A stretch of DNA of 40,286 nt from a virus (lineage: Monodnaviria; Loebvirae; Hofneiviricota; Faserviricetes; Tubulavirales; Inoviridae), in the IMG/VR virus record IMGVR_UViG_2874968258_000009. One strand, given 5' to 3'. Positions 1 through 20,297 of the stretch are shown here, piece after piece. The notes beneath the pieces were generated by a model that was not told the DNA's origin, made no database searches, and saw only the letters and a list, made by a program, of their open reading frames with translations. Positions within the stretch are counted from its first letter, which is position 1; each line of letters starts with the position of its first letter. The position numbers and the translations under genes are program-made.

Positions 1-457
1 TTAAGCAGCCATCTGATGATATTTTTCCCTGAAGGCTGCCGGGGAGATATTCCCCAGACGAGAGTGACGACGCTGACGATTGTAGAAAATCTCAATGTAT
101 TCCCGTATTACTGAGATGGCTTCATCCCGGTTATTAAAACGATAGTGGCTCAGGCTCTCATTTTTCAGCGTTCCCCAGAAGCTTTCCATCGGAGCGTTGT
201 CGTAACAGTTACCTTTACGCGACATTGATGTTTTCAGACCAAACTGCTCCTGTATGACCCGGTAATCGTATGCGCAGTACTGTGAACCTCGATCAGAGTG
301 GTGGATTAGCCCGGCAGGTGGGCGCTGGCTCCTGAGCGCCATAAACAGGGCTTTACCTGTCAGCTCTTTTGTCATGCGCTCTCCCATGGCGTAGCCGACA
401 ATTTCGCACGTATAAACATCTTTGATGCCAGCGAGGTACAACCATCCCTCCTGTGTG
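1..457 (-). mobile_element. IS600-like (IS3 family) element, 3' portion, cut by window edge and fused to an IS2 fragment
   Basis: Minus-strand translation of 1-457 matches the C-terminal ~150 aa of the OrfB encoded at 3484-4302 ([24 protein letters not shown]...REKYHQMAA). Collinearity ends at 455-457 where the sequence switches to IS2-internal DNA. Confidence 0.8.
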
Positions 458-1100
458 TTTACCGGATCATGCGCCAGAATGCGCTGTTGCTTGAGCGAAA
501 ACCTGCTGTACCGCCATCGAAACGGGCACATACAGGCAGAGTGGCCGTGAAAGAAAGCAATCAGCGATGGTGCTCTGACGGGTTCGAGTTCTGCTGTGAT
601 AACGGAGAGAGACTGCGTGTCACGTTCGCGCTGGACTGCTGTGATCGTGAGGCACTGCACTGGGCGGTGACTACCGGCGGCTTCAACAGTGAAACAGTAC
701 AGGACGTCATGCTGGGAGCGGTGGAACGCCGCTTCGGCAACGATCTTCCGTCGTCTCCAGTGGAGTGGCTGACGGATAATGGTTCATGCTACCGGGCTAA
801 TGAAACACGCCAGTTCGCCCGGATGTTGGGACTTGAACCGAAGAACACGGCGGTGCGGAGTCCGGAGAGTAACGGAATAGCAGAGAGCTTCGTGAAAACG
901 ATAAAGCGTGACTACATCAGTATCATGCCCAAACCAGACGGGTTAACGGCAGCAAAGAACCTTGCAGAGGCGTTCGAGCATTATAACGAATGGCATCCGC
1001 ATAGTGCGCTGGGTTATCGCTCGCCACGGGAATATCTGCGGCAGCGGGCTTGTAATGGGTTAAGTGATAACAGATGTCTGGAAATATAGGGGCAAATCCA
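455..1100 (+). mobile_element. IS2 3' fragment (corresponds to ~nt 686-1331 of the full copy at 1867-3197)
   Basis: DNA from 455 onward is near-identical to 2552-3197 of the complete IS2 and ends with the same terminus ...ggaaatataggggcaaatcca at 1100. Confidence 0.85.
469..1089 (+). pseudogene. insD: IS2 transposase InsD, C-terminal fragment (N-terminus missing)
   Basis: 206-aa ORF is near-identical to residues ~96-301 of the InsD encoded at 2281-3186; its upstream part was replaced by IS600 sequence. Confidence 0.85.
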
Positions 1101-1957
1101 GGCAATACCATGAATCACCGGAGCGAAACCATGTTGTCTATCGGGCAACATCGCTTCTGTTGAATTTATTTTGAGGCCACGAAAGTTCACACTATCAAAA
1201 ATATCGCCATCGGTATAACTATCACCTACCGTTAACCGTGAGCGTAAGGGAATAATGTCACGTTCAGCCGACGTATTGATATGCTGCCATTTATTGCTGT
1301 CAGATGAATTGCTACTCCCACTGTTATAACTCCACGTTGAGTTATCGCGTAGTCGCCAACTACCAATGTTGATGCCACTCTGTAAATTCAAATATGCATA
1401 GTTTGATTTTCCTGCATTATGGTTACTACGATTATTAATAGAATTACCATTAAAACTATAGTTTAGAAGCCCTGCATTTATTCCTTCTTCCCACAGATCA
1501 GGAGAAACATAGCCGCGAGCCATTCTGCCAACATAAATTTGCGGAACGGAGAGTGACAGATGTTGCTGACCAACATCAAACTCAGTTGATGCGTCGGCCA
1601 AACGATCCTGAAGTGGTGTGCATGCGCTGTTGTCCGGCACATGTTTTTCTGCCGAATGTTCTTTATTGTCTAATAACGCTATTTTTTTTATACCAAGACT
1701 GACAAGAAGATCTGTACTCAGGCATGGGATGAGTTCTGCGTTATTTGAGGTAGCCTGAGTTTAACGGACACTCCTTCCTGAAATAGAATGGCATCAGAAG
1801 GAGCTAATAATGAGCAGAAAAACCCAACGTTACTCTAAAGAGTTCAAAGCCGAAGCTGTCAGAACGTAGACTGGCCCCCTGAATCTCCAGACAACCAGTA
1901 TCACTTATTTAAGTGATAGTCTTAATACTAGTTTTTAGACTAGTCATTGGAGAGCAG

Positions 1958-2323
1958 ATGATTGATGTCTTAGGACCGGAGAAACGCAGACGGCGTACCA
2001 CACAGGAAAAGATCGCAATTGTTCAGCAGAGCTTTGAACCGGGGATGACGGTCTCCCTCGTTGCCCGGCAACATGGTGTAGCAGCCAGCCAGTTATTTCT
2101 CTGGCGTAAGCAATACCAGGAAGGAAGTCTTACTGCTGTGGCCGCCGGAGAACAGGTTGTTCCTGCCTCTGAACTTGCTGCCGCCATGAAGCAGATTAAA
2201 GAACTCCAGCGCCTGCTCGGCAAGAAAACGATGGAAAATGAACTCCTCAAAGAAGCCGTTGAATATGGACGGGCAAAAAAGTGGATAGCGCACGCGCCCT
2301 TATTGCCCGGGGATGGGGAGTAA
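1958..2323 (+). CDS. insC: IS2 transposase OrfA (InsC)
   Basis: ORF with [40 protein letters not shown]...; the track ORF 1913-2323 starts at an upstream in-frame Met, and ATG 1958 is the likely start. Confidence 0.9.
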
Positions 2324-3186
2324 GCTTAGTCAGCCGTTGTCTCCGGGTGTCGCGTGCGCAGTTGCACGTCATTCTCAGACGAACCGATGACTGGATGGAT
2401 GGCCGCCACAGTCGTCACACTGATGATACGGATGTGCTTCTCCGTATACACCATGTTATCGGAGAGCTGCCCACGTATGGTTATCGTCGGGTATGGGCGC
2501 TGCTTCGCAGACAGGCAGAACTTGATGGTATGCCTGCGATCAATGCCAAACGTGTTTACCGGATCATGCGCCAGAATGCGCTGTTGCTTGAGCGAAAACC
2601 TGCTGTACCGCCATCGAAACGGGCACATACAGGCAGAGTGGCTGTGAAAGAAAGTAATCAGCGATGGTGCTCTGACGGGTTCGAGTTCCGCTGTGATAAC
2701 GGAGAAAAACTGCGAGTCACGTTCGCGCTGGACTGCTGTGACCGTGAGGCACTGCACTGGGCGGTCACTACGGGCGGCTTCAACAGTGAAACAGTACAGG
2801 ACGTCATGCTGGGAGCGGTGGAACGCCGCTTCGGCAACGAGCTTCCGGCGTCTCCAGTAGAGTGGCTGACGGATAATGGTTCATGCTACCGGGCTAATGA
2901 AACACGGCAGTTTGCCCGGATGTTGGGGCTTGAACCGAAGAGCACGGCGGTGCGGAGTCCGGAGAGTAACGGCATAGCAGAGAGCTTCGTGAAAACGATA
3001 AAGCGTGACTACATCAGTGTCATGCCCAAACCAGACGGGTTAACGGCAGCAAAGAACCTTGCAGAGGCGTTCGAGCATTATAACGAATGGCATCCGCATA
3101 GTGCACTGGGTTATCGCTCGCCACGGGAATATCTACGGCAGCAAGCCAGTAATGGGTTAAGTGATAACAGGTGTCTGGAAATATAG
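2281..3186 (+). CDS. insD: IS2 transposase OrfB (InsD), overlapping insC in a different frame
   Basis: 301-aa [37 protein letters not shown]...DDE-type integrase core ([13 protein letters not shown]...[11 protein letters not shown]). Confidence 0.9.
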
Positions 3187-3483
3187 GGGCAAATCCAGAA
3201 CGGTTCTTGAAAATCAACTTTCGATCAGTGAAGGCGCTTCCCGATTATCTCTTCCTGAAGGCACTTTAGGACAATGGGTTACCGCCGCCAGAAAAGGGCT
3301 CGGTACTCCTGGTTCCCGCACGGTGGCTGAACTGGAATCTGAAATTCTGCAACTGCGTAAGGCGTTAAATGAAGCTCGCCTTGAGCGAGATATATTAAAA
3401 AAAGCAACAGCGTATTTTGCACAGGAGTCGCTGAAAAATACGCGTTAATCGAACAATGGCGACAACAATTTCCCATTGAAGCG

Positions 3484-4302
3484 ATGTGTCAGGTATTTGG
3501 TGTATCCAGGAGCGGTTATTACAACTGGGTACAGCATGAACCCTCAGACAGAAAACAAAGTGATGAGCGGCTAAAACTGGAGATTAAGGTGGCACATATC
3601 CGCACTCGCGAAACATATGGAACCCGGCGGCTCCAGACGGAGCTGGCAGAGAATGGCATCATCGTTGGTCGTGACCGACTGGCACGTCTTCGTAAGGAGC
3701 TAAGGCTACGCTGTAAGCAGAAACGCAAGTTCAGAGCGACTACGAACTCGAACCACAATCTGCCAGTTGCGCCAAATCTGCTGAACCAGACGTTCGCTCC
3801 TACAGCACCAAATCAGGTCTGGGTGGCGGACCTGACGTATGTTGCCACACAGGAGGGATGGTTGTACCTCGCTGGCATCAAAGATGTTTATACGTGCGAA
3901 ATTGTCGGCTACGCCATGGGAGAGCGCATGACAAAAGAGCTGACAGGTAAAGCCCTGTTTATGGCGCTCAGGAGCCAGCGCCCACCTGCCGGGCTAATCC
4001 ACCACTCTGATCGAGGTTCACAGTACTGCGCATACGATTACCGGGTCATACAGGAGCAGTCTGGTCTGAAAACATCAATGTCGCGTAAAGGTAACTGTTA
4101 CGACAACGCTCCGATGGAAAGCTTCTGGGGAACGCTGAAAAATGAGAGCCTGAGCCACTATCGTTTTAATAACCGGGATGAAGCCATCTCAGTAATACGG
4201 GAATACATTGAGATTTTCTACAATCGTCAGCGTCGTCACTCTCGTCTGGGGAATATCTCCCCGGCAGCCTTCAGGGAAAAATATCATCAGATGGCTGCTT
4301 AA
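3484..4302 (+). CDS. IS600-like (IS3 family) transposase OrfB
   Basis: 272-aa ORF with an rve-type integrase core (HHSDRGSQYCA...SRKGNCYDNAPMESFWGTLK) directly downstream of orfA; likely expressed as an OrfAB frameshift fusion in an intact element. Confidence 0.85.
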   Translation: MCQVFGVSRSGYYNWVQHEPSDRKQSDERLKLEIKVAHIRTRETYGTRRLQTELAENGIIVGRDRLARLRKELRLRCKQKRKFRATTNSNHNLPVAPNLLNQTFAPTAPNQVWVADLTYVATQEGWLYLAGIKDVYTCEIVGYAMGERMTKELTGKALFMALRSQRPPAGLIHHSDRGSQYCAYDYRVIQEQSGLKTSMSRKGNCYDNAPMESFWGTLKNESLSHYRFNNRDEAISVIREYIEIFYNRQRRHSRLGNISPAAFREKYHQMAA

Positions 4303-4387
4303 AAAAAGAACAAATGGTAGTGTCCGCTATTGCCAGTACACCTCAATTATCATCTGCAATAAAAGTAATATCGGTAATGACTCCAAC

Positions 4388-4891
4388 TTATTGATAGTGT
4401 TTTATGTTCAGATAATGCCCGATGACTTTGTCATGCAGCTCCACCGATTTTGAGAACGACAGCGACTTCCGTCCCAGCCGTGCCAGGTGCTGCCTCAGAT
4501 TCAGGTTATGCCGCTCAATTCGCTGCGTATATCGCTTGCTGATTACGTGCAGCTTTCCCTTCAGGCGGGATTCATACAGCGGCCAGCCATCCGTCATCCA
4601 TATCACCACGTCAAAGGGTGACAGCAGGCTCATAAGACGCCCCAGCGTCGCCATAGTGCGTTCACCGAATACGTGCGCAACAACCGTCTTCCGGAGACTG
4701 TCATACGCGTAAAACAGCCAGCGCTGGCGCGATTTAGCCCCGACATAGCCCCACTGTTCGTCCATTTCCGCGCAGACGATGACGTCACTGCCCGGCTGTA
4801 TGCGCGAGGTTACCGACTGCGGCCTGAGTTTTTTAAGTGACGTAAAATCGTGTTGAGGCCAACGCCCATAATGCGTGCAGTTGCCCGGCAT
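4388..4891 (-). CDS. insB: IS1 InsB
   Basis: 167-aa ORF overlapping the insA 3' end, as in IS1 (InsAB' frameshift arrangement). Confidence 0.9.
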
Positions 4892-5085
4892 CCAACGCCA
4901 TTCATGGCCATATCAATGATTTTCTGGTGCGTACCGGGTTGAGAAGCGGTGTAAGTGAACTGCAGTTGCCATGTTTTACGGCAGTGAGAGCAGAGATAGC
5001 GCTGATGTCCGGCAGTGCTTTTGCCGTTACGCACCACCCCGTCAGTAGCTGAACAGGAGGGACAGCTGATAGAAACAGAAGCCAC
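4810..5085 (-). CDS. insA: IS1 InsA
   Basis: 91-aa [46 protein letters not shown]... Confidence 0.9.
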
Positions 5086-5245
5086 TGGAGCACCTCAAAA
5101 ACACCATCATACACTAAATCAGTAAGTTGGCAGCATCACCGTAATATCCCGACTAGTCATAAATTCGTCGTTCAAATAAATGTCGACCCGATATGTACCA
5201 GGTGGTGCCTCGCGTCCCTTAGTAAAGGCGGGTAATGACTCCAAC

Positions 5246-5749
5246 TTATTGATAGTGTTTTATGTTCAGATAATGCCCGATGACTTTGTCATGCAGCTCC
5301 ACCGATTTTGAGAACGACAGCGACTTCCGTCCCAGCCGTGCCAGGTGCTGCCTCAGATTCAGGTTATGCCGCTTAATTCGCTGCGTATATCGCTTGCTGA
5401 TTACGTGCAGCTTTCCCTTCAGGCGGGATTCATACAGCGGCCAGCCATCCGTCATCCATATCACCACGTCAAAGGGTGACAGCAGGCTCATAAGACGCCC
5501 CAGCGTCGCCATAGTGCGTTCACCGAATACGTGCGCAACAACCGTCTTCCGGAGACTGTCATACGCGTAAAACAGCCAGCGCTGGCGCGATTTAGCCCCG
5601 ACATAGCCCCACTGTTCGTCCATTTCCGCGCAGACGATGACGTCACTGCCCGGCTGTATGCGCGAGGTTACCGACTGCGGCCTGAGTTTTTTAAGTGACG
5701 TAAAATCGTGTTGAGGCCAACGCCCATAATGCGTGCAGTTGCCCGGCAT
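5246..5749 (-). CDS. insB: IS1 InsB
   Basis: 167 aa, one substitution (E to K) relative to the 4388-4891 copy. Confidence 0.9.
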
Positions 5750-5943
5750 CCAACGCCATTCATGGCCATATCAATGATTTTCTGGTGCGTACCGGGTTGG
5801 GAAGCGGTGTAAGTGAACTGCAGTTGCCATGTTTTACGGCAGTGAGAGCAGAGATAGCGCTGATGTCCGGCAGTGCTTTTGCCGTTACGCACCACCCCGT
5901 CAGTAGCTGAACAGGAGGGACAGCTGATAGAAACAGAAGCCAC
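5668..5943 (-). CDS. insA: IS1 InsA
   Basis: Identical to the 4810-5085 product. Confidence 0.9.
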
Positions 5944-6227
5944 TGGAGCACCTCAAAAACACCATCATACACTAAATCAGTAAGTTGGCAGCATCACCGT
6001 AAAGGCGGATAAATCGACAGATTCAGCAAGATCATTGCTTAAAAACCGTGGATTAAAATAATACTCTGCGTCAACGGGAAATACCGCAGTTGCTAAGCCA
6101 AGGGCAATGGTAAGCCGTGCAAAGCGAGGCAGTATTAACACCTGATGCATACGATATGCCTTAAATGCGGCACGAAAGGCTGTCATTATTAATTCCGATT
6201 GAGTTTATTATTAATTAGGTCACTGGC

Positions 6228-6765
6228 TTACTGCATGGTTGCCTTAATACGCGGAGTTAATGCACCGTAATCATTGATCGTCTGAAAACTGATATCCCCG
6301 GTTGCAGCATGCGGGATATCCACCGATACTTCACCTTTTGGCGGCACCATGGTGTTTGGGAGATTGCTATTTCCTGCTTTCATATTTGTTACGGTAATGA
6401 AATAGGGCGTTGGATTAATAAGAGTGAGTTTGCTACCGCTACGACGAAACCGAAGCATTGCAGGCGCTTCTTCAGGTGCCATTGCCAGGTTCGTGGGGCG
6501 ATAAAACATTTTTATGCGGCTAATAATTGCCAGCTGTAATGTATTCTCATTCTTCTGGTCTTTTTCCATAGCAGGAATAGCTTTAACATTCACCCAGAAC
6601 AGGCTTTCACGGTCGCCTGGTAACTGATGATTAGTAGCGTTGATTATCCGCAGCGTATTCCAGTGCGACAGCTGCGTTGGCAACGGTGCTATGGCAAGCA
6701 AAGAGCAATAAAAGTAACACTGTCGCCATAAAGGAAATAGAGTAGGGGGTACGCGTAGTTTGCAT
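6228..6765 (-). pseudogene. Fimbrial periplasmic chaperone (FimC/PapD family) with an internal out-of-frame deletion
   Basis: Minus-strand ATG at 6765 with a GGAGA Shine-Dalgarno opens a signal peptide (MQTTRTPYSISFMATVLLLLFACHSTVANA AVAL) that hits a stop after ~45 codons. The chaperone body (NTLRIINATNHQLPGDRESLFWVNVKAIP...NPTPYFITV...DYGALTP) continues in the +1 frame, with ~60 N-terminal domain codons missing. Confidence 0.7.
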
Positions 6766-7321
6766 CTGATGCATTCTCCATGTGTTAAGAGGATAAGCGG
6801 GAAAACCGTTACATCAGACAATCGATTAATGTTGCTAATACATTGGCGAGTCGCCGGGTTTCCAGACTTAATGCGTTTGTAATAAATGTTGGTTCTCTTT
6901 TAATAGGAAAACCTTGCTACAAAGTAAATATTTTAAATAACAGTAAGTTTAACTACTGTTGTTTATTGATAGTTTAGATATTATGTGATTTTTCATAGCG
7001 CTCCAAATACAAACCACTCCTCATTAATAATGAGATTCACATTGGTGAATTGCTCGGGTGTGCGTAGCCATGCCACACACACCCTGTTTCAATTTCAGAT
7101 GACGTATAGCCACCTTAAGATTGAATTATAGATATTGAACTTTGAAGGTCGCATCAGCGTTTGCAGTACCAGCTACGGACTGCCCGAGAGCAATATAACG
7201 AGCCTGGAATGGCAGTATATTCGTGCCACGATAACATCTTTAAATCACAAGGACACCTAATCTGAACGAATACTGAACGAATAACGACTACCAGAAAAGC
7301 ACTTCGCATCACTCAGACATG

Positions 7322-7349
7322 ATTTAACATAATATACATTATGCGCACC
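7322..7349 (-). other. dif: Chromosomal dif site (XerC/XerD recombination site) forming the left prophage junction (attL)
   Basis: Plus strand ATTTAACATAATATACATTATGCGCACC is the reverse complement of the canonical E. coli dif GGTGCGCATAA-TGTATA-TTATGTTAAAT (28/28). Confidence 0.9.
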
Positions 7350-7489
7350 AATGGTAAGGATGGCAGAATCTGGCGGGAATCGTTGACACTGGCCGTCAAC
7401 TGGCTACTATCGACAGTGATTCAAAATCATCCGTTTCTCCAAACGAATCAGAATCAAATGTCTGTCAGCAGTAAGTGAACGGCCTGACC

Positions 7490-7738
7490 TCACCAATCAG
7501 GCCTGTTCATCCAGTTAGTTGGTAAATCTGTACCTGATACACGAGAATCAAACACCACTTCTTCAGTGCCATCACCATGATGCCGGATAATCTGGTAACC
7601 GGATTGCGGGTTCTGGCTCTCAGCTTCATAAGCAGCCCGGAATGCTGGATCTTTGAGAAGCATCACTTTCAGCTCCTGATGTGTCATGAATTTTTCCATG
7701 ATAAGCCCCGATGAATGCTGCCGCGCCGAATCAGCCAT
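7490..7738 (-). CDS. Hypothetical small protein downstream of the secretin gene (start uncertain; possibly the internal Met at MTHQELK)
   Basis: 82-aa ORF with protein-like composition (MEKFMTHQELKVMLLKDPAFRAAYEAESQNP...); unchanged in all three copies despite a nearby indel. Confidence 0.4.
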   Translation of the reverse strand: MADSARQHSSGLIMEKFMTHQELKVMLLKDPAFRAAYEAESQNPQSGYQIIRHHGDGTEEVVFDSRVSGTDLPTNWMNRPDW

Positions 7739-8220
7739 AACGCTGAAAATGGAAACTGTACGGCTTGGCCAACCCCGGACAGCAACAAAACAAGTTTTGT
7801 CACTGACCGGCGTTATCTTTCAAAACAGACAGTTAACGATTTTTTGTCTGGTGTTTATGCGTGAAATTTCGTGCGTACGAAATTCACCACCAATAAACAA
7901 ACGGACGATGACTGACCGGAAAAGCAATGCCGTCAGCATCATGACCACGCATTACCTGATTGAGAAGACTTCTGACTTCACGGCGCTCAGGCCTGGTCAT
8001 CATCATATTGCGATACCAGGACGGCGATTTATCAAACCATCTGGCACAACTGGCAAAATGTGAACCTACACGACGATAAGACTTAAGGCGGCCACCGGGA
8101 AGTCGGTCACGCGCCTTATTTTTTACAGACATAATAAATCCTCTAAGTAACTGAATACCTAGAAGATGTCGTACTGTTCATACCCCATAAAAGTTAACGC
8201 CATAATAAAAATCCATACAA

Positions 8221-9465
8221 TCAGTTCAGGTTGTCCCGGAACAGTTCACCGCTCCTCGCGGCGCTGCGGGGCGTCGCCCTGCTCCGGTCAACCTTTCTGA
8301 CCTGAAGCATCACCATAATATCAGTCTTGTTGCTTTCACTGGTACGGGAACCGAAGAAGCTCCAGCCGGAACTGGCCTTACTGTCTTTCTGTTCAGCAAG
8401 GCCACCAAGTAAAATAATATCACCATCTGCAAGGCTGACTTCGGTTGTTACATCACGCTTGATAAGGGTTGGCGAGTTATTGACGCCGGTTTCAGTGGTC
8501 ACAAAGTTGGAAAGCTGCTGCTGAATCTTGAGATCCATTGTCCGACTTTTGATTGATGGCGTCACGTTAAACAAAACACCGCTGGAACGATATTCAACGG
8601 ATTGCGTTGTCGTATTGTTATTCACCGTAACACTGCCCAGTACTGGCACATCAGAGCCGACTGAAAAAGACGCTGAGGCATTATTTTTTACCCGCAGTCG
8701 TGGCGCACTGACAACAGTAAAACGACTGTCGGTTTTCAGCAGATTGAAAATGGCATCAATGGAGCCGGTTCGAATATTGATAAAATTATCCAGTCCGGCA
8801 GCACCAACTGAAATATTGAATTTATCAGACAGAATTTTAGCCGCTAAAAGAATGCCGGAGCCGTCAGACTGCGAGGTCTGAACCTCAAAAACATAACCAG
8901 AAACAACCACTTCATCACTCATCGTATCCAGCGAAGTGACCAGTGTTTTCAGGATGGCGATATCCTCTTTCGTACCATAATAAACCAGAATATCACCGGT
9001 TCGATTGATGTAGTTGCTTGCCCCTGATGAACCTTTTAGCGAATCGTCAGAAATCACGGCTCCACTGTTATTGAAGGAGCCTGAAACGTAGCCGCCAAGA
9101 ATATCAGACAGGTAGGCAACAGAACGGTACTGAGGCGTATAAGTCCATGTATAACGTGGCTTAACCGGCTCTTTCGGCGTATAGGGCGCGATAAAATCAA
9201 CACCCTTTTTCGTCCATATTCGAATGTTCATATTGCCAAGATAACGGGTTACAAATTCCCGTTCATCAATATCAGGTGTTAACCTGAATGTAATCATTCG
9301 TTCATCATTAACAAGCTGTGGATCTAGCATATACGGGACTTTAAGCACCTCACTGTAAATAAGAGAAATAGCCTCCGGTAGCTTGACTTTATTTAATTCA
9401 AGCTCTGACCCTGCGAAAGCACATGAAGAAAATAGTAGCGTTAATGCGAGTAAAATCTTTTTCAT
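8221..9465 (-). CDS. Phage secretin (pIV-like outer-membrane export channel)
   Basis: 414 aa with an N-terminal signal peptide (MKKILLALTLLFSSCAFA) and a C-terminal secretin-type region (VVSAPRLRV...GDIILLGGLAEQKDSKASSGWSFFG). Confidence 0.8.
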   Translation of the reverse strand: MKKILLALTLLFSSCAFAGSELELNKVKLPEAISLIYSEVLKVPYMLDPQLVNDERMITFRLTPDIDEREFVTRYLGNMNIRIWTKKGVDFIAPYTPKEPVKPRYTWTYTPQYRSVAYLSDILGGYVSGSFNNSGAVISDDSLKGSSGASNYINRTGDILVYYGTKEDIAILKTLVTSLDTMSDEVVVSGYVFEVQTSQSDGSGILLAAKILSDKFNISVGAAGLDNFINIRTGSIDAIFNLLKTDSRFTVVSAPRLRVKNNASASFSVGSDVPVLGSVTVNNNTTTQSVEYRSSGVLFNVTPSIKSRTMDLKIQQQLSNFVTTETGVNNSPTLIKRDVTTEVSLADGDIILLGGLAEQKDSKASSGWSFFGSRTSESNKTDIMVMLQVRKVDRSRATPRSAARSGELFRDNLN

Positions 9466-10490
9466 TATTTTTTCCCCGTATAAAGCGTCACACGCTCACC
9501 ATCAATAATTCCGCTCATCAACATCCCTTTGTAATTAAAACTGGATGCAGGAACGGCACGCAAAACACCGGCACCGTTAACAAGAATCACAAACGCCCTG
9601 CCTTCACTGGTCATTCTCCCTGATATACGCCACTCGGTTGAAAGTGGCGGTTCAGCTGGTTCTGAGGGAGTATCTGATGCTGGAGTAACAGCGGAAGAAC
9701 GAAACATGGCCGCATCACGTACATCTGTTGTAGTCAAATCTGGCGAGGGATCGCTTCGGCCAAACGTGCTGAAAAATGAGTAAATCAGCCAGCCTGACCC
9801 GATAAACATCAATGGAAAAAGCACAAGAAAGAACCTGACTTTGCCAGAATTCCAGATGCTCTGGCGTTTATCTGTCTGCTTTTCATTACCGTTATTTCCT
9901 TCATAGCTTTTGTAAAGTTCAAAAATATCAGGGTTATATTTATTGCGATAACTGGTGACGAGGTTGCTTTTATAGATTTTGTGGCCTGAATATACGTCAA
10001 TGCAGTAATGATTATTCAGGCCCAACGCTTTCAGCTTGCGCATCCGGTAAGTTGTTTCTATTTTGTCTTTCAGAAAGCGAGCAATATTAGAAAGTGACTG
10101 ATTTACAATAACCAAATCACAGCTAATACCCGTTTCAGGGTGCGTAAAATGACGATGTTCAGCAATAAATGATTTCTTCTCAGCCGTCATATCCTTATCG
10201 CTACCGAAGATTCGCCATGCTTCATCAATAACAATTAAATCACCAAACTGGCAAAAGCTCCCTTCCCCACCTTTAAAAGGAAAGAAATCTGCTTTAAGCA
10301 CATCATCATTATCCACAACAATAATTTCTCCCGTTGCATCAGGATAACGTTCGGTGATTTTATCTTTTTGTAAACCATAAATGTTCGTCACAACTCTCCG
10401 GCCGCTGGTAAATGCCGGAATAATGACATTGCAAACGGCTTCATAACTTTTTCCTGAGCCGGGTATGCCAATATATGCAGAAATAGCCAT
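9465..10490 (-). CDS. Zot/pI-family phage assembly ATPase
   Basis: 341 aa with an N-terminal Walker A motif (GIPGSGKS), a Walker B-like LIVIDEAW, and a C-terminal hydrophobic segment; positioned immediately upstream of the secretin gene as gene I is in Ff phages. Confidence 0.8.
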   Translation of the reverse strand: MAISAYIGIPGSGKSYEAVCNVIIPAFTSGRRVVTNIYGLQKDKITERYPDATGEIIVVDNDDVLKADFFPFKGGEGSFCQFGDLIVIDEAWRIFGSDKDMTAEKKSFIAEHRHFTHPETGISCDLVIVNQSLSNIARFLKDKIETTYRMRKLKALGLNNHYCIDVYSGHKIYKSNLVTSYRNKYNPDIFELYKSYEGNNGNEKQTDKRQSIWNSGKVRFFLVLFPLMFIGSGWLIYSFFSTFGRSDPSPDLTTTDVRDAAMFRSSAVTPASDTPSEPAEPPLSTEWRISGRMTSEGRAFVILVNGAGVLRAVPASSFNYKGMLMSGIIDGERVTLYTGKK

Positions 10491-10493
10491 AAC

Positions 10494-10781
10494 TCACCCT
10501 ATAACAGGAATACGTCGAATAATAAAACGAGTAGCCATTGCGGAGATAATCATACTAATCCCCTGTGGTAATTTACTCAGGTTAATGAAGTACCAGAATC
10601 CGTCTGATAAATTGGCAAACAGCGATGAGAGATTGCTTGAATCTGGCAGTAACTCAACAAGGATTTCAACGAAGCCCTGGACTACAAAATACAGCGCAAA
10701 GAATACGACGAATTTAATAATCAATGACCGGAATACAAAACCTAACAAAGTATTTAATGCACTAATCAGAATCCCAAACAT
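10494..10781 (-). CDS. Minor coat protein (pVI-like), hydrophobic
   Basis: 95-aa strongly hydrophobic ORF between the pIII-like and pI genes, the syntenic position of gene VI. Confidence 0.5.
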   Translation of the reverse strand: MFGILISALNTLLGFVFRSLIIKFVVFFALYFVVQGFVEILVELLPDSSNLSSLFANLSDGFWYFINLSKLPQGISMIISAMATRFIIRRIPVIG

Positions 10782-10793
10782 AGTTGCACTCCT

Positions 10794-12506
10794 TTAGGCA
10801 CTCAGAATAATACGGAGCGCAACAAATCCCCATATAATCAGAAATATGGTTTCTACGGCGCTTCTGTTCTGCTCAATTAACGGACAATGGGAGTCAATTC
10901 TGTACTGGTGATTAAACACGCTGAATTCAACAACGGGGCAGGATGCTGAACGAGAGCCGATGTTAAATTCGTTTGTAAAAGGCAACAAGTTAATAATTGG
11001 CGTTAAAATATCTCTTGCCGTTGGCGTTTCTTCAAGCTCAGGCTCTTTTACACCGGGATCTTCTCCCAAATCTATATTGCCATTATTTCCAGTGTCAGAT
11101 CCTGAGTTGTTATTAATGGTAATATCAATATTGACGTCAGCCCCTGCACTGTCAGATACAGGTGAAAGCATATCTAATAACGTTGGAGATAGCCTAAGTT
11201 CCGACATCGCAGAAGTTACTTCAGCCGGTGAAACCTCTTTAAACGGTAAGCCGTTATAATCGGCATTAACGGCAGCTTCAGACCACAGCTCGTTAATCAT
11301 GTCGGCAAGAAGTGCTGGCGATACACTAACACTATCAAGATACTCCAGATAATCAATCATGGACTCAATATTTCCGGCCTCCAGTACTTCCGTCATGGCT
11401 TTATATTTGGTATTGGTCCAGATAGTAAGCTCACTCTTTTCATCAATATCTTTTGCGGTGTAATCCTCTTTTTCAGGAACGGCGCAAATCGTCGAATATC
11501 CACCATTTGACTGATTAGTCGTTTTACAAGGCGTGTTGTGATACTGATATTGCTTGCCTGCTGTTAAATAAGCAACGCTGTAATACATGGGAAGCCCTGC
11601 TACATTTTCATACATGGGAATACCTGCGGGAAATGAAGATGCGGCCGGGTTGCTATACAAGTGTGTAATCTCAGGTATTTCATAAAATGAGGAAGGATAA
11701 GTAAACTTATAATTCTGTTCAGTAAAGGATACATCTCCATTACTGTTGACAACTTTATTCGTCACAGTGCGTTCAAAATTTGTTAGTGTTTCAGTATAAG
11801 TACGCGAGTTATAGTCATTAAGATAATTTCTGGCAATTTCAGTTGGATTATCACCATAGTAATAAATTAGCTCTTTCGAATCCTGATAATAATAAAGTGC
11901 ATTATCTGGCGTGGAATATCCTGTTTCAACACCTACAACTGGAGAACCCGCATCCACATTATTACGACTAACATGAAGGATTACCGGACTTAATTCCTGT
12001 GGTTCAAAATTAACGGTTATCGTCTTACTTTCACCACTTTGACCACTGTACGTTACTTCATATAAATTATCGGAAATCTTTTTACCGTTAGTCATTACCA
12101 TTACCGAGCCGTCAGATGAACTCAAAGAAGACGGAACAAAAGATGATACAGCAGCAGCAATACCCGCCCACGTTGCAACACCGCTCATTTTGTATGATGA
12201 GGCAGCAGGCAAGTATTCGGCAGCATTAGCCGCAGCGCGGCCAACAAAAACACGGGTTGCTGTAAGCTGTGATGCCGTATAAATCGCATCATTGGCAGCA
12301 AAGCGACGAACAAGCACCCGGCCAACGACTTTAGGAATAACAGCCCGCGCAGCCACTGCTGCAATTGCTGGTACAAATGAATATGAATATCGGGGAAAGG
12401 AAACCCAGAGAAAGGAAAAAATAAAGGAATAAACCGTCAGCCTCTTAGCCCAAGAATAACGACATAAGCTGAGACGATCCCCCATAAAAGGGAACCCAAT
12501 TTCCAT
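10794..12506 (-). CDS. Adsorption/minor coat protein (pIII-like); true start may be an internal Met
   Basis: Large ORF after the major coat gene with a Gly/Ser/Asn-rich linker (NNNSGSDTGNNGNIDLGEDPG) and a C-terminal membrane anchor (AVETIFLIIWGFVALRIILSA). Confidence 0.6.
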   Translation of the reverse strand: MEIGFPFMGDRLSLCRYSWAKRLTVYSFIFSFLWVSFPRYSYSFVPAIAAVAARAVIPKVVGRVLVRRFAANDAIYTASQLTATRVFVGRAAANAAEYLPAASSYKMSGVATWAGIAAAVSSFVPSSLSSSDGSVMVMTNGKKISDNLYEVTYSGQSGESKTITVNFEPQELSPVILHVSRNNVDAGSPVVGVETGYSTPDNALYYYQDSKELIYYYGDNPTEIARNYLNDYNSRTYTETLTNFERTVTNKVVNSNGDVSFTEQNYKFTYPSSFYEIPEITHLYSNPAASSFPAGIPMYENVAGLPMYYSVAYLTAGKQYQYHNTPCKTTNQSNGGYSTICAVPEKEDYTAKDIDEKSELTIWTNTKYKAMTEVLEAGNIESMIDYLEYLDSVSVSPALLADMINELWSEAAVNADYNGLPFKEVSPAEVTSAMSELRLSPTLLDMLSPVSDSAGADVNIDITINNNSGSDTGNNGNIDLGEDPGVKEPELEETPTARDILTPIINLLPFTNEFNIGSRSASCPVVEFSVFNHQYRIDSHCPLIEQNRSAVETIFLIIWGFVALRIILSA

Positions 12507-12530
12507 AATTCAATCTCCATAATAACCTCA

Positions 12531-12557
12531 AGTAAAACGGGCGATATTGCATCGCCC
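12531..12557 (-). terminator. Rho-independent terminator after the major coat gene
   Basis: Hairpin GGGCGAT-attgc-ATCGCCC (12539-12557) followed on the minus strand by GTTTTACTT; sits between pVIII and pIII as in Ff phages. Copies at +9504 and +19007. Confidence 0.55.
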
Positions 12558-12570
12558 ATGAATAATGAAT

Positions 12571-12804
12571 TTATGCGGATTTAACGGTACGCAATACCCA
12601 GCGAACGCCAGCGACACCGGCATAAAGTGTTACCAGTGAAGCAGCAACGGCCATAATCGCAACCAGAACTGTACTGAAATCAATGCTGTTCGTCAGCGGC
12701 GATAAATCAACACCACTTGATGCCGCTCCTTCTGCAGCGAAAGTCGCGCCAGAAACAGCCATTAATGCAGGTACAGCCAGAAAACTAACGATTTTTTTAA
12801 ACAT
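12571..12804 (-). CDS. Major coat protein (pVIII-like)
   Basis: 77 aa: signal peptide (MFKKIVSFLAVPALMAVSGATFA), acidic N-terminus, hydrophobic core and basic C-terminus (RWVLRTVKSA). Confidence 0.8.
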   Translation of the reverse strand: MFKKIVSFLAVPALMAVSGATFAAEGAASSGVDLSPLTNSIDFSTVLVAIMAVAASLVTLYAGVAGVRWVLRTVKSA

Positions 12805-12838
12805 AACTCTATCTCCATTACATTTTAAAGGTTCGCAT

Positions 12839-13090
12839 TCAAGCAGTACGAACCATCTTTATTACCTGTCCCACACCTACAGAAAAAAGCCAGAGCAGCA
12901 GGACAGAGCCAAAACCTAATATCCAGTAATTTCCCATTGCAGAATAATCAATTTGATGAAATGGTTCAGAACGTACCATTATTGCCTGACATTCTTTTGC
13001 ATTGTTCGCATTACATAAATAACCTTCAATACGGTAACCATTTTCAGGAATATGATTATCAAACTGAATATCGAAACCTGATGTATCCAT
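12839..13090 (-). CDS. Small membrane-anchored protein (possible minor coat/assembly protein)
   Basis: 83 aa with a C-terminal TM segment (YWILGFGSVLLLWLFSVGVG) between the ssDNA-binding and major coat genes. Confidence 0.4.
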   Translation of the reverse strand: MDTSGFDIQFDNHIPENGYRIEGYLCNANNAKECQAIMVRSEPFHQIDYSAMGNYWILGFGSVLLLWLFSVGVGQVIKMVRTA

Positions 13091-13092
13091 AA

Positions 13093-13410
13093 TCAGCCTT
13101 TTATTTCAGTAATGCCGCCATCTGATGAAATGTTATAAGTTACTCCTTCCCTCCCCTCCATTGACCAGACGCGAACATATACAGGTATCTGGACTAACTT
13201 ACCGATAAAATTATTTGCCTGATTCATTACACCGGCATTAACAAGAGCCTGAGATACACGAATAATAATCTGGTCTTGCTTAGTGCCGCCAAAACCATCA
13301 GGAATCTCTAAGCCAACACCAATTTCATTATAGTATCCCTGACCATTGACCTTATTACGCTGGCGAGCACCAAGCATTTTACCTTTTACAAAAAGACCAT
13401 AATTAGACAT
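13093..13410 (-). CDS. Putative ssDNA-binding protein (pV-like)
   Basis: 105-aa ORF immediately downstream of the replication initiator, the gene V position; assignment is by position and size only. Confidence 0.45.
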   Translation of the reverse strand: MSNYGLFVKGKMLGARQRNKVNGQGYYNEIGVGLEIPDGFGGTKQDQIIIRVSQALVNAGVMNQANNFIGKLVQIPVYVRVWSMEGREGVTYNISSDGGITEIKG

Positions 13411-13421
13411 ATCACTCTCCT

Positions 13422-14474
13422 TTAATGCCAGTTACTGGCATGTGAAATACGGTTATAATCGAAAATTAAACCTTTCTCATAAACCCATGATGGAATTTTG
13501 GCTGGTTTGGCTTCAAGAGTACGAACCAACGGAACAACGTTATTAGAATCCGGTGACTCACAATAAAAGTTAATATCTATTCCGAAAGAAAGTAGTTCTT
13601 TACGGTGTCGGTAGAATGTAGGTTTCGGTAACATCTCTTTCATGTTCGCGCCCTGCTTCCACAATAAATATGTAGACTGTATTTTTCTTGGGAGATTAAT
13701 TATTTTTTCATCAGTTAATATGGTATTTTGATTCATTTCTATTCTCCCTACATAGTCAGAGAATAATTTATTGGGCGTCTCAATATTCCAGCTATTACCA
13801 AGCGTAAGATTCAAATCAATTAATTCAGTTGTTCTTAATGTTAATTCAATGCGTAATTTATCTTTTGACCAGTCCAGTAAACCAGCTTTAACGAATTCGT
13901 CTGCCATCTGGTGCCCTTTTTTGCCAGATGTATGCTCATCATATTTTGAATAAAATTTCAGGCTCCAACGACGGGAGTTTTTCCCTAAGTAAACAGTGCC
14001 ACCTTTACCACAGGCGCGACCGTGGCGAGTTTTAGCTTTAAATTCTGCGGCATATAACCATGCGCGGACATTTTCTAATGTTGACAATGAATACATGTAA
14101 TTGATATCGATGCGCGAGATCTTAAATTGCCCTTCCATGACCTGCCGATAGGATGGTAGATCATGAGGAATATGCAGTAATGCCAATATTCTGGCGTAAG
14201 CTGTTAACACCAACCCTTGCAAATCGTCGGAACCTATAACAGAGTGACCTTGCAAAAACTTTGATGGATTACCGTCAATGTAGAGATGTGTTGCCCTACC
14301 TTCACCATCAGATCCAACAGACCTTACTTTCATTGTGGACTCATGCGAACCGCGAACGGTCAACCGTTTTACTGTTTCCCACTCCACTGCACCGTCAGCA
14401 TCGACGCTGACGACACTACCAGCCGGTAACGGTCGGTGTGTGCAAGGCAGGATTCCGGTAAACCAGTCGATCAT
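13422..14474 (-). CDS. Rolling-circle replication initiation protein (pII/RstA-like)
   Basis: 350-aa first gene of the minus-strand operon, divergent from an HTH regulator; length and position match pII/RstA-type initiators (..GGTVYLGKNSRRWSLKFYSKYDE..). Confidence 0.65.
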   Translation of the reverse strand: MIDWFTGILPCTHRPLPAGSVVSVDADGAVEWETVKRLTVRGSHESTMKVRSVGSDGEGRATHLYIDGNPSKFLQGHSVIGSDDLQGLVLTAYARILALLHIPHDLPSYRQVMEGQFKISRIDINYMYSLSTLENVRAWLYAAEFKAKTRHGRACGKGGTVYLGKNSRRWSLKFYSKYDEHTSGKKGHQMADEFVKAGLLDWSKDKLRIELTLRTTELIDLNLTLGNSWNIETPNKLFSDYVGRIEMNQNTILTDEKIINLPRKIQSTYLLWKQGANMKEMLPKPTFYRHRKELLSFGIDINFYCESPDSNNVVPLVRTLEAKPAKIPSWVYEKGLIFDYNRISHASNWH

Positions 14475-14645
14475 AAGTAGTCACACCCATCAAAATATGT
14501 GTCAATAGTCATTTGTGAGCAGATTGAATGGTCACAATGTAATATGCTCAGATCTGACAGTCAATACATTTGCAATGTTTAAATTGTCAGAAATGAGCAT
14601 CAAATCTAACTATTGAAAAACCACTGTTAAGATGGAGCCAAGTAG
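14475..14645. promoter_or_regulatory. Divergent promoter/operator region between the replication operon and the HTH regulator gene
   Basis: AT-rich 171-bp intergenic region containing two direct repeats, GTCAATAGTCATTTG (14501-14515) and GTCAATACATTTG (14560-14572), plus further TGTCA-containing motifs. Confidence 0.5.
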
Positions 14646-15092
14646 ATGGGCAACAATGAGCATGAAGTTATGGCGGACAAACAGAGAGCAGAACGTATCA
14701 AAAAGGTAATTCTGGAACACTCGACTTATGAAGAACTGGCCGAGAAGACTGGCATTAGCGTGAGTACGCTGGTCAGGATAGCGTCCGGCAAAACTGAACC
14801 TAAATTCAGTGACATCATTCAGATAGCTAAAATTACGGGTGCAGACTTAAACACCTTAGCTTATGGCTATGCTCTTGATGTTAAAGAAGAAGCTACCGAG
14901 CGGAAGCTAATCACTTCTGCGGATGGATATACTGATGAAGAAACCACTAACGCACATAATTTCATCGTGTGGAACATCAGGACACTGGAAAAACAAGATA
15001 TTCTGGCACTCGCAAGGCAGGTTTCTGCATTAAGTTCATACACTTACAGTACTAAAATGTTTATGAAAAAAGCGGTGTCTGGAGAAGAGTAA
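14646..15092 (+). CDS. XRE/Cro-C1-type helix-turn-helix transcriptional regulator (candidate phage repressor)
   Basis: 148 aa with an HTH segment (YEELAEKTGISVSTLVRIASGKTEPKFSDIIQIAKITGADLNTLAYG); divergently oriented to the replication gene. Confidence 0.7.
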   Translation: MGNNEHEVMADKQRAERIKKVILEHSTYEELAEKTGISVSTLVRIASGKTEPKFSDIIQIAKITGADLNTLAYGYALDVKEEATERKLITSADGYTDEETTNAHNFIVWNIRTLEKQDILALARQVSALSSYTYSTKMFMKKAVSGEE

Positions 15093-15121
15093 AAGGATTA
15101 ACAGTCTCAGGAATGAGACAA

Positions 15122-15156
15122 ACGTGCAGTATTACCAACACTGCACGTTCTTTATT
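15122..15156 (+). terminator. Rho-independent terminator after the regulator gene
   Basis: Hairpin ACGTGCAGT-attaccaaca-CTGCACGT followed by TCTTTATT. Copies at +9504 and +19007. Confidence 0.6.
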
Positions 15157-15191
15157 GTGCGAATTCTGAACAGTAAAAAAGGATCAAAAGG

Positions 15192-15614: not shown

Positions 15615-15681
15615 GCAATTTTGCTCCATATATCAGCGGTGAAGTTCAGAGGTGGTTATTTTTTAGTCTTGAGGAAAGATA

Positions 15682-16476: not shown

Positions 16477-16486
16477 AAGGACATAT

Positions 16487-16753
16487 ATGGCTACTGTAGA
16501 TGATGTTGCACAATGGATGAAATCAGAGCTGGAAAACACAAACTGGCTATATCAAGAAACTGTTGTATATAAAATAAAAGAGTTATTTGGCGATACTTTC
16601 GTATATTTGAATGCTAATGGAAATTTATCCATTGATAAAAAAGTATTAGCGAAGTTTAGAAAGCTAACTAATGACACGGTTATATGGGAGAGAGGTGAAA
16701 AAGCATGGCGAAAAAGACAAGGTTATGATGCCCCTGGTCGACAGCAGGACTAA
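16487..16753 (+). CDS. Hypothetical small protein, tightly coupled to the upstream 264-aa gene
   Basis: 88-aa ORF starting 11 nt after the upstream stop, with Shine-Dalgarno AAGGA; basic C-terminus. Confidence 0.5.
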   Translation: MATVDDVAQWMKSELENTNWLYQETVVYKIKELFGDTFVYLNANGNLSIDKKVLAKFRKLTNDTVIWERGEKAWRKRQGYDAPGRQQD

Positions 16754-16787
16754 ATAATTGGTTCGCACAATGACGTTATGCTAAAGA

Positions 16788-19994: not shown

Positions 19995-19997
19995 AAC

Positions 19998-20285: not shown

Positions 20286-20297
20286 AGTTGCACTCCT

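Follow-up and report, generated by a model that had tools for sequence, protein, structure and literature searches.

In the filamentous phages of the Ff group (f1/M13/fd), the packaging signal and the origins are located after gIV. The single-strand initiation signals of the phiX174 and G4 types and the Frpo of F are hairpins of the transferred or packaged strand and depend on host enzymes. Among the integrative phages, YpfPhi has been reviewed: it forms tandem arrays of 2-4 copies, its encapsidated genome bears a pair of inverted XerC/D sites, and two genes without predicted function, YPO2280a and YPO2281, adjoin attR in a position analogous to that of ctxAB (PMC4266046). In UPPhi, two small genes of unknown function, h1 and h2, follow the secretin gene, whereas the corresponding stretch of IKe and M13 is intergenic (Shapiro and Putonti 2020, PMC7307601).

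We analysed a DNA stretch of 40,286 nucleotides, hereafter the window, whose minus strand carries, in tandem, three units belonging to a filamentous prophage of the CUS-1/YpfPhi type (7335-35859), recognised by periodicity, sequence identity, core proteins and Pfam matches. The head-to-tail units (7335-16838, 16839-26342 and 26343-35845, followed by a 14-nt shared core) are 9504, 9504 and 9503 bp long: 7335-17348 is identical to 16839-26852 with a period of 9504, and 17345-26356 to 26848-35859 with a period of 9503. The core order gII-gV-(small)-gVIII-gIII(PuvA)-gVI-gI(Zot)-gIV(secretin), from which the repressor gene diverges, was established from the ORFs, the Pfam matches (Phage_CRI + G2P_X_C, G5P, DUF2523, Zot and Secretin), the PGAP names in relatives and sequence identity, the core proteins being 99-100% identical to those of Y. 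pestis YpfPhi. On sequence grounds, the prophage is a variant, integrated at dif, of the already known type of YpfPhi and of CUS-1 from E. coli O18:K1:H7, with which it shares the gene order, the two att-adjacent small ORFs and an identical ORF2-ORF1 spacer, including its A6 run. Like the window prophage, the known phages integrate at dif, restore an intact dif on one side of the insertion and form tandem arrays (PMC4266046). The window unit differs by its length, 9504 bp versus 8.7 kb, owing to another cargo beside the repressor (here encoding a DUF6953 protein, a protein of 140 aa and one that has a DpnII/MboI-like nuclease domain), and by the T5 run of copy 3 described below. The whole unit had no megablast match in a phage collection, which therefore lacks YpfPhi and CUS-1 as phage entries; under NZ_CP128883.1, the same phage has been deposited as a plasmid, in a circular record of 9565 bp. 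Complete public E. coli genomes hold a median of 2 and a maximum of 5 copies of the prophage and, given these numbers, a three-copy array is credible independently of the T5 run.

In the region 7350-8220, the rightward gene block of the prophage reaches its att-proximal end, on the chromosome-junction side; the gIV secretin gene (8221-9465, minus strand, Pfam Secretin) borders the region on the right. Read on the gene strand, which is the minus strand of the window, the order is gIV, a hairpin including the ribosome-binding site, ORF2, a stop-codon hairpin, the A6 run, a 44-nt hairpin in a block of about 100 nt, ORF1, a 140-nt spacer and the att core joined to dif. Taken together, the data make it probable that this end of a known dif prophage carries two real genes, a T-run devoid of function and a hairpin which is a candidate cis element.

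The left end of the array is an intact chromosomal dif, GGTGCGCATAATGTATATTATGTTAAAT, at 7322-7349 on the minus strand; this exact 28/28 match is the sole one in the window, where 0 are expected by chance. The core common to dif and to the phage att, TACATTATGCGCAC, lies at 7335-7348 and is repeated at 35846-35859, and the junction sequences revealed a hybrid, imperfect att site at the unit junctions and at the right end. On the XerC side, the 14-nt core appears to contain the whole crossover, which would be consistent with an exchange by XerC. At the unit junction, a folded attP is predicted on the minus strand at 16757-16856 (also 26261-26360, and truncated at 35764-35859). It is made of site A (16760-16786, GGTTCGCACAATGACGTTATGCTAAAG), of an inverted site B (16821-16853, GGTGCGCATAA-TGTACGACTCG-TTATGTTGAAA) and of a tip which is the terminator stem of the cargo operon (16787-16797/16810-16820). 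Its predicted single-strand fold (-31.2 kcal/mol, z -7.1) was equalled by none of 200 shuffled sequences and ranks first in the structure scan of the whole unit; it is located beyond the crossover point from 7350-8220. Similar inverted dif-like sites are present in the Xenorhabdus loci. In CTXPhi of Vibrio cholerae, two inverted dif-like sites likewise give a forked hairpin in the packaged strand, which for the window is a prediction; the two phages also resemble each other by their tandem prophage arrays and by accessory genes placed between the assembly genes and att, the position of ctxAB (PMC4266046). They differ in that the replication protein of the window phage belongs to the Ff G2P family whereas that of CTXPhi is RstA, in that the window phage encodes its own secretin, and in that none of its accessory genes is related to ctxAB. 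The 140-nt non-coding spacer (7350-7489) that separates the ORF1 stop codon from the att core contains the palindromic sequence GTTGAC-N7-GTCAAC (7382-7400) and, on the plus strand, a site resembling a promoter, TTGACA-16-TACTAT (7383-7410). About 35 nt beside the XerC arm are kept in Brenneria phages, and the spacer varies in length, being about 56 nt in one of them (L006).

The original prediction regarded the small ORFs of this region as being of uncertain reality, and this doubt has to be abandoned for the two minus-strand ORFs, which are homologues of YPO2281 and YPO2280a under purifying selection. ORF1 (69 aa, 7490-7699; copies 16994-17203 and 26498-26707) is the YPO2281 homologue. Its conserved start is Met14 of the 82-aa ORF initially proposed (7490-7738), PGAP calling a 65-aa product (7490-7687): the Yersinia, Raoultella, Brenneria and Pectobacterium homologues have their start at the same Met with a Shine-Dalgarno site, and the match with phrog_6642 (unnamed, E 1e-53) aligns from residue 14. 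Compared with Brenneria, the differences at the three codon positions are 8/12/22, with dN 0.21 and dS 0.88. ORF2 (7884-8132; copies 17388-17636 and 26891-27139), the YPO2280a homologue, encodes a basic protein of 82 aa. It has 82 codons in 14/14 related loci (Yersinia, Pantoea, Brenneria, Xenorhabdus and Zobellella), the Salmonella and Morganella proteins are likewise 82 aa long, and it is always found upstream of dif in the same orientation. Against 13 of these loci its dN/dS is 0.12-0.28 with an excess of third-position differences, dS being saturated in the 14th. In Y. pestis NCTC5923, ORF2 and ORF1 are 99% and 97% identical to those of the window and occupy the same positions, and PGAP annotates both small genes in E. 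coli. Judged from this conservation, ORF1 and ORF2 are genuine accessory genes of a phage family associated with virulence. Between genera, ORF2 is even better conserved than the structural genes are, and it therefore merits a functional test.

Neither protein gave a match in Pfam, NCBIfam or PADLOC. The predicted structure of ORF2 was poor with 18 sequences (pLDDT 54) and reached a pLDDT of 74.5 with 75, with a long helix at residues 38-61; the model had no Foldseek match in PDB or BFVD, and its sequence profile retrieved only noise from PDB. Two distant relatives of ORF2, one on a 948-bp contig and the other beside ParA, PIN and Gp49 genes, were uninformative for function. Immediately ahead of the ORF2 ATG, the Shine-Dalgarno sequence (GAGGA) is part of a 12-pair hairpin with a terminator-like match (8138-8167, minus strand), and the sequence of this hairpin is conserved in the Pantoea and Brenneria loci. 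Over the ORF2 stop codon, a small minus-strand hairpin (7861-7887) with a perfect core, AATTTCGT/ACGAAATT (7865-7872 and 7877-7884), is retained in the Brenneria alni phage L007 and is possibly a weak terminator. The ORF2(-ORF1)-dif loci of Pantoea and Brenneria sp. were considered as independent mini-elements, and this was rejected: the genes upstream are chromosomal and a 3' fragment of gIV remains, indicating that these loci are deletion remnants.

A T-run between ORF2 and ORF1 had been proposed as the sole length difference among the copies, with T6 in copies 1 and 2 (7840-7845 and 17344-17349) and T5 in copy 3 (26848-26852). The alignment of the units agrees with this and extends it, the run being their sole difference of any kind. 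The context is GTTAACGATTTTTTGTC in copies 1 and 2 and GTTAACGA-TTTTTGTC in copy 3. On the gene strand, the run is an A6 in the ORF2-ORF1 spacer, 25 nt from the foot of the 44-nt hairpin; it is located outside both genes and the hairpin, in a stretch of the spacer conserved in the closest relatives only. The Brenneria alni phage keeps the spacing around the run, with a stretch of the same 43 nt in which A5C replaces A6, so that a change of one base could matter for something unrecognised. As expected from the earlier ORF listing, the difference spares both minus-strand ORFs (7490-7738 and 7884-8132) in every copy, and T5 splits a plus-strand ORF of 125 aa (7686-8063) into 26694-26903 and 26723-27070 in copy 3. 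The view that this plus-strand ORF is not a gene was borne out on other grounds also: it matched no Pfam or PHROG family, six relatives (Brenneria, Pantoea, Xenorhabdus and metagenomic) have no equivalent of it, and it runs antisense to frames under purifying selection, ORF2 among them. The fold of the spacer is unchanged between T6 and T5 (-33.7 vs -33.8 kcal/mol as DNA, -59.6 vs -59.7 kcal/mol as RNA), and T5 is thus predicted to be without effect on coding or folding. The change in length probably carries no function, be it an error or a mutation.

The distribution of the two alleles was examined in 98 records of complete E. coli genomes. An 80-mer with T6 had an identical match in 79 of the 98 records, and no identical sequence was found for the 79-mer with T5 among the best matches in 98 such records; in the copies read from the fetched loci, T6 was present in 32 out of 33 and T5 in one. 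Six public arrays were moreover compared unit by unit. Two have identical units, and the other four add up to nine changes (four in FEX669, one in FDAARGOS_1303, three in UID2309220036 and one in A4). All of these except one are single-base indels, most of them in short homopolymers, and several frameshift gII, gIII, gVI or the repressor in a single copy only. "Complete" public genomes therefore hold such differences inside essential phage genes. As single-base indels are usual in these arrays and several disrupt essential genes, T5 is no proof that the copies are distinct.

Slippage in homopolymers is the commonest real mutation, and the extra copies of an array are free to decay. The first analysis had taken the difference as showing that the copies are physically distinct; on this view, T5 would be a genuine slippage mutation marking copy 3. 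A change in this non-coding stretch would be tolerated and leaves the fold unaltered, an A5 is found at the homologous place in Brenneria relatives, and for the UPPhi of ECONIH2 the tandem inovirus copies are on record as truly heterogeneous (PMC7307601). Against it, the allele was not encountered elsewhere in the above counts, a one-base homopolymer deletion is the signature of long-read consensus errors, and the same class of difference sits within essential genes of the public arrays; a true mutation is conceivable, with somewhat less than an even chance. We consider that T5 is most likely, by a modest preponderance, a long-read consensus error in a repeat which short reads cannot polish copy by copy, and that it would otherwise be a recent and effectively neutral slippage mutation. 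A phase-variable tract, whose length would set promoter spacing or transcript structure and switch ORF1 between copies, is highly improbable. It is true that the homopolymer occupies an intergenic spacer upstream of a gene and that the spacing around it is conserved with the Brenneria phage, but the gene strand of the ORF2-ORF1 spacer showed no sigma-70-like promoter and six bases are short for a contingency locus. Such a tract should vary in length among copies and strains, and the opposite was observed, T5 having been met once. One-base homopolymer differences between otherwise identical tandem prophage copies should be taken neither for biology nor for a proof of copy number unless copy-resolved reads are at hand.

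The same spacer contains a conserved non-coding block (7714-7817, minus strand), delimited by an inverted repeat and by cross-phage alignment. The inverted repeat forms a 44-nt hairpin of 21 pairs (7771-7814, arms 7771-7791 and 7794-7814), followed on the gene strand by GGCCAAGCCG, a T-rich stretch and GCGTTATGGCTGATTCGGCGCGGCAGC. In an alignment of 12 distinct sequences, 91.6% of the cells are paired and 4 pairs are changed on both sides; 0-1 of 500 shuffles reached this covariation score, and slid controls gave 0-1. The hairpin is placed after gIV in backbones of the CUS-1/YpfPhi, UPPhi and Rep_trans types, in inoviruses whose replication initiators are unrelated (Phage_CRI type and Rep_trans type). 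A search of Rfam over 7250-8400 gave no match. Over 7714-7817, the block is 86.8% identical to a UPPhi-type Salmonella replicative form (NZ_CP140410.1), which carries it between its two small genes. UPPhi and the window phage are indeed alike in having two small genes after gIV, and gII and gV are 86% and 94% identical; h1 and h2 are nevertheless not homologous to ORF2 and ORF1 (no match by tblastn), and the UPPhi assembly genes are IKe-like. Copies of the hairpin also exist on plasmids. In F-type plasmids it is found between traT and traD, and the transferred strand would bear the same version of it; the orientation argument is drawn from one plasmid lineage. Two links were tried and rejected. 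The hairpin does not track the gII type, as it might if it were a plus-strand origin, since the Rep_trans phage L032 has it too; nor does ORF2 seem to be its ligand, Xenorhabdus phages having ORF2 without the hairpin, and UPPhi and L032 the hairpin without ORF2.

The original prediction expected the packaging signal and origin at this position and supposed that the region may be largely structural DNA. The expectation of a cis element was upheld in part, by the covarying hairpin of the spacer. The broader supposition was contradicted, as the two conserved genes take 459 of the 871 nt (53%) and the strongest single-strand fold, attP, is on the other side of the crossover point. The block may be the only good candidate for structural DNA in 7350-8220. 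In its strong form, an Ff-like region of packaging signal and origins with small ORFs arising by chance could invoke the several hairpins and the post-gIV position which these elements occupy in Ff; it is barely tenable, since the dN/dS values and the conservation of ORF1 and ORF2 across genera already contradict chance ORFs, the best single-strand structure of the unit is elsewhere, and no Ff-type pII nick site was matched with up to 3 mismatches allowed. The window phage does share with Ff a pII of the same Pfam families and the location of the region after gIV, and its covarying hairpin may be a counterpart of the hairpin conserved on the packaged strand of Ff. It differs from Ff in that its gIV-gII interval is mostly occupied by two protein genes instead of being non-coding, in that attP, cargo and repressor separate the region from gII, and in that its hairpin has 21 pairs as compared with a 78-nt Ff signal.

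For the hairpin block itself, we tentatively propose a portable, host-factor-dependent single-strand cis element common to unrelated inoviruses and plasmids, most plausibly a start site for the complementary strand, the T-run being unimportant; this is possible rather than probable. A host factor would mediate its action on the packaged single strand, with a start site of complementary-strand synthesis as the best guess and a packaging signal as the second. As known initiation signals rely on host enzymes, they can be exchanged between unrelated replicons, which fits the distribution of the hairpin; the block differs from them in having no sequence match to any described signal that could be tested. 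That 7714-7817 is instead the packaging signal of enterobacterial integrative inoviruses, and not a priming site, is rather doubtful. Such a role would suit a block always found after gIV, as is the Ff packaging signal, with a structure conserved on the packaged strand, and the packaging signals of integrative Xanthomonas phages are short hairpins that can replace one another (bioRxiv 10.1101/2023.12.30.573655). It is less easily reconciled with a block that is 87-94% identical between phages whose assembly genes are unrelated or 27-56% identical, and that is present on plasmids as well. The Xanthomonas packaging consensus (20-26-nt hairpin, stem GGX(A/-)CCG(C/T)G) is absent from both strands of the unit. 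Like the phiLf-type phages of Xanthomonas, whose packaging signal is bound by the protein PSB15, the window phage combines a short hairpin, here a candidate cis signal, with a small basic accessory protein encoded by an integrative inovirus; PSB15 differs in carrying DUF3653, whereas ORF2 has no Pfam family, and ORF2 and the hairpin are not always together. A cis signal of such kind has so far been undefined for the CUS-1/YpfPhi/UPPhi group. Should the proposal of a single-strand cis element be true, the hairpin would be a concrete candidate for the complementary-strand origin or the packaging signal of enterobacterial integrative inoviruses. Finally, a G+C-rich hairpin (8228-8294, predicted fold -23.5 kcal/mol, z -4.0) is located just outside the region, within the last 24 codons of gIV.

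Base-by-base comparison of the window revealed a direct repeat with a period of 9504 and then 9503 nt: 7335-17348 is identical to 16839-26852, and 17345-26356 to 26848-35859. When the three units were aligned, only one difference was found, GTTAACGATTTTTTGTC in copies 1 and 2 and GTTAACGA-TTTTTGTC in copy 3, which places a T6 run at 7840-7845 and 17344-17349 and a T5 run at 26848-26852. The original prediction of a T6/T6/T5 difference among otherwise identical copies was thus confirmed, and all the ORFs that it named are present. In copy 3, the 125-aa plus-strand ORF (7686-8063 in copy 1) is split and both 82-aa minus-strand ORFs are intact.

An exact E. coli dif site is located at 7322-7349 in reverse orientation, and the three head-to-tail filamentous prophage units begin immediately to its right. 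The minus strand carries gII (13422-14474; Phage_CRI and G2P_X_C), gV (13093-13410; G5P), two small genes, gVIII among them, then gIII (10794-12506; called PuvA in relatives), gVI (10494-10781; DUF2523), gI (9465-10490; Zot) and gIV (8221-9465; secretin). On the plus strand, three cargo genes come after a divergently oriented HTH repressor. The element is a CUS-1/YpfPhi variant, since its core proteins share 99-100% identity with their counterparts in the tandem YpfPhi prophage of Yersinia pestis NCTC5923 and, of 5426 complete E. coli genomes, 97 carry the same phage (164 places; median 2, maximum 5 per genome). Integration at dif and arrays of two to four copies were already described for YpfPhi/CUS-1 (PMC4266046); overall the biology is ordinary: the prophage type is known, and it is tandem here as it usually is. 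A 9565-bp circular E. coli record deposited as a plasmid (NZ_CP128883.1) is the replicative form of the same phage, and a 7938-bp circular Salmonella record also deposited as a plasmid (NZ_CP140410.1) is an inovirus replicative form. Two places of the 248-kb Klebsiella plasmid NZ_CP132684.1 are 100% identical to the ORF2-ORF1 spacer of the window, suggesting that the phage is integrated in this plasmid.

On the gene strand, the T-run is an A6 within the 184-nt spacer between ORF2 and ORF1. This spacer is identical in Y. pestis YpfPhi; the homologous 43 nt of the Brenneria alni phage are equal in length with A5C in place of A6, and the T-run part is unalignable in more distant relatives. Among 98 E. 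coli records, the T6 80-mer had an identical best match in 79 and the T5 79-mer in none, and the copies read directly comprised 32 T6 and a single T5, that of copy 3 of the window. T6 and T5 do not differ in the predicted fold of the spacer, whether as DNA or as RNA, and no gene-strand promoter was found in the spacer.

Neighbouring units were also compared in six public arrays. GN05064 and CUVET21-PYO5 showed no differences between units, whereas four single-base homopolymer deletions were observed in FEX669, one single-base deletion in FDAARGOS_1303, two indel events and one substitution in UID2309220036 and C4 versus C5 in A4, so that single-base indels account for 8/9 inter-unit differences. 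In these last four arrays, several indels cause a frameshift in a single copy, affecting gII, gIII, gVI, the repressor or ORF1. Single-base indels confined to one copy are a familiar pattern of long-read consensus error where short reads cannot polish repeats copy by copy, and those of the public arrays are probably unpolished long-read errors. The T5 of the window is the same kind of event; we lean towards an artefact, the alternative being a recent neutral slippage. T5 thus fails to demonstrate physically distinct copies, contrary to what had been claimed from it. The three-copy array is credible without T5 because tandem arrays are the rule for CUS-1/YpfPhi-type phages, and the T-run difference is of doubtful reality and predicted to be without consequence.

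The region 7350-8220 had been proposed to be mainly structural DNA, with small ORFs of uncertain reality. In fact, ORF1 and ORF2 occupy 459 of its 871 nt, so that it is mostly not structural, and both are genes, as indicated by their cross-genus homologues, the selection on ORF2 and the conserved start of ORF1. ORF2 (7884-8132) has full-length 82-aa homologues with 68-98% identity in Salmonella, Pantoea, Brenneria, Morganella, Xenorhabdus and Pectobacterium. It counts 82 codons in all 14 genomic loci, with differences gathered at third positions and a dN/dS of 0.12-0.28 (13 loci with estimable dS), and its conservation across genera is 57-79% versus 26-57% for the adjoining secretin. In the window and in the comparison loci L004-L018, it is the last conserved gene before dif, always upstream of it and in constant orientation. 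A profile search placed ORF2 in a wider family of small basic proteins (148 cluster representatives; motif PSWW..TRPxRR...G.D.D..FP..KPH.YYW) without Pfam entry, and neither structure prediction nor structure and profile comparison gave a fold or function assignment. Distant members of the family adjoin ParA, PIN and Gp49 genes.

A 12-pair hairpin at 8138-8167, directly 5' of the ATG of ORF2, holds its Shine-Dalgarno sequence and may control its translation. This hairpin and some 90 nt preceding ORF2 are kept even in prophage remnants of Pantoea piersonii and Brenneria sp. These remnants retain just ORF2, ORF1 being present or absent, together with the hairpin of the ORF2-ORF1 spacer (7771-7814) and dif; chromosomal genes lie directly upstream, and a gIV 3'-end fragment is still present in the Brenneria remnant.

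The conserved start of ORF1 is Met14 of the ORF originally proposed, giving a 69-aa product (7490-7699). The phrog_6642 alignment begins at this residue, and the homologues begin at its equivalent with a Shine-Dalgarno sequence in front. Compared with Brenneria, the ORF1 differences at the three codon positions are 8/12/22. The view that the 125-aa plus-strand ORF is not a gene gained independent support, as no family match was found in Pfam or PHROG and no counterpart in six relatives. ORF1 and ORF2 are thus known but uncharacterised accessory genes, homologous to YPO2281 and YPO2280a respectively, ORFs of unknown function that adjoin the att site at the position of ctxAB in CTXPhi (PMC4266046). 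A strong promoter-like site on the plus strand at 7382-7410 (TTGACA-16-TACTAT, 10/12 matches), with its first hexamer inside a GTTGAC-N7-GTCAAC palindrome, would read antisense into ORF1.

The suggestion that a cis element might lie here was right: within this region of mostly genes, single-strand structure prediction brought out a candidate, a covarying hairpin at 7771-7814 in the ORF2-ORF1 spacer. When the packaged (minus) strand of the entire unit was scanned, it ranked third among three structures; it lies 25 nt from the T-run. In 12 distinct copies, 91.6% of the cells pair and four pairs have changed on both sides; 0-1 of 500 shuffles reached the observed values, and sliding the partner columns abolished the signal. 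Two conserved G.T pairs of the gene strand make the packaged strand form the better hairpin of the two complementary strands. On the gene strand, the conserved block (7714-7817) continues downstream of the hairpin for about 60 nt, and Rfam gave no match to the region. These comparisons argue for the spacer hairpin as a conserved element.

A pattern scan detected it in 14 inovirus contigs, always after gIV and in three settings: after ORF2 in the CUS-1/YpfPhi and Brenneria group, between two unrelated small genes in a UPPhi-type Salmonella replicative form (gII 86% but gIV only 27% identical to the window), and directly after gIV in a phage with an unrelated Rep_trans-family initiator. No hairpin was found in the Xenorhabdus phages with ORF2. 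Plasmids carry 46-nt copies with 86-89% identity (loci L027 and L029, at 4001-4050, L028, L045 and L046). In F-type plasmids they are flanked by traT and traD and closely follow an 86-aa ORF of unknown function; copies also occur on a Klebsiella virulence plasmid and on Pantoea and Yersinia plasmids. The Klebsiella and Pantoea copies look to be inside inovirus remnants.

The presence of one hairpin in plasmids and in phages with unrelated initiators and assembly proteins suggests the action of a host factor, and a start site for complementary-strand synthesis, used via such a factor, would fit best. The strand that F transfers is the one that serves as template for the tra genes. As the element of F-type plasmids is on the tra-sense strand in the plus orientation of the window, the version on the transferred strand would be that of the packaged phage strand; this match counts for little, being a 50:50 coincidence in a single lineage. 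The main alternative is a packaging signal, which would agree with the matching position after gIV in Ff and with the short interchangeable hairpins that Xanthomonas integrative phages use for this function (bioRxiv 10.1101/2023.12.30.573655). However, the Xanthomonas consensus is absent from the unit, and it is less easy to see why unrelated assembly modules would share a packaging signal. The verdict on the T-run is unaffected since it falls outside the conserved block, and the covarying hairpin block is the sole point worth following up.

The first-ranked structure of the packaged strand is the attP hairpin at the unit junctions (16757-16856 and 26261-26360) and, truncated, at 35764-35859, across the crossover point from the T-run region. 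Its inverted dif-like sites, site A (16760-16786, GGTTCGCACAATGACGTTATGCTAAAG) and site B (16821-16853, GGTGCGCATAA-11 nt-TTATGTTGAAA), are predicted to pair in the single strand, forming a long, forked hairpin whose tip is the terminator stem of the cargo operon (-31.2 kcal/mol, z -7.1), which corresponds to the CTX-type attP suggested for YpfPhi. Similar inverted sites are also found in Xenorhabdus relatives. The second structure is a G+C-rich imperfect hairpin in the last 24 codons of gIV (8228-8294, minus strand; -23.5 kcal/mol, z -4.0), which may be another single-strand or mRNA element; the Brenneria alni phage keeps it, and one double change there, from G-C to A-T, was noted by eye.

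Adjoining attP, the cargo (15192-16753 and its copies) codes for a 140-aa protein, a 264-aa DpnII/MboI-type nuclease-domain protein matched by PADLOC to Aga_Helical-REase (1e-34) and PDC-S35, and a DUF6953 protein. Relatives have other cassettes at this position (ECs_2282 zinc-binding protein, STM4504/CBY_0614 family); this suggests a variable slot that may hold defence genes.

The flanks (1-7320 and 35860-40286) are dense in insertion sequences of the IS1 (4373-5140, 5231-5998 and 37917-38684) and IS3 families, and the hipA-side flank shares no more than about 97% identity with typical E. coli; together, these features make a Shigella-like lineage not represented in the complete E. coli collection the probable host. 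These flanks also contain three IS3-family transposase ORFs and broken fimbrial usher and chaperone genes.
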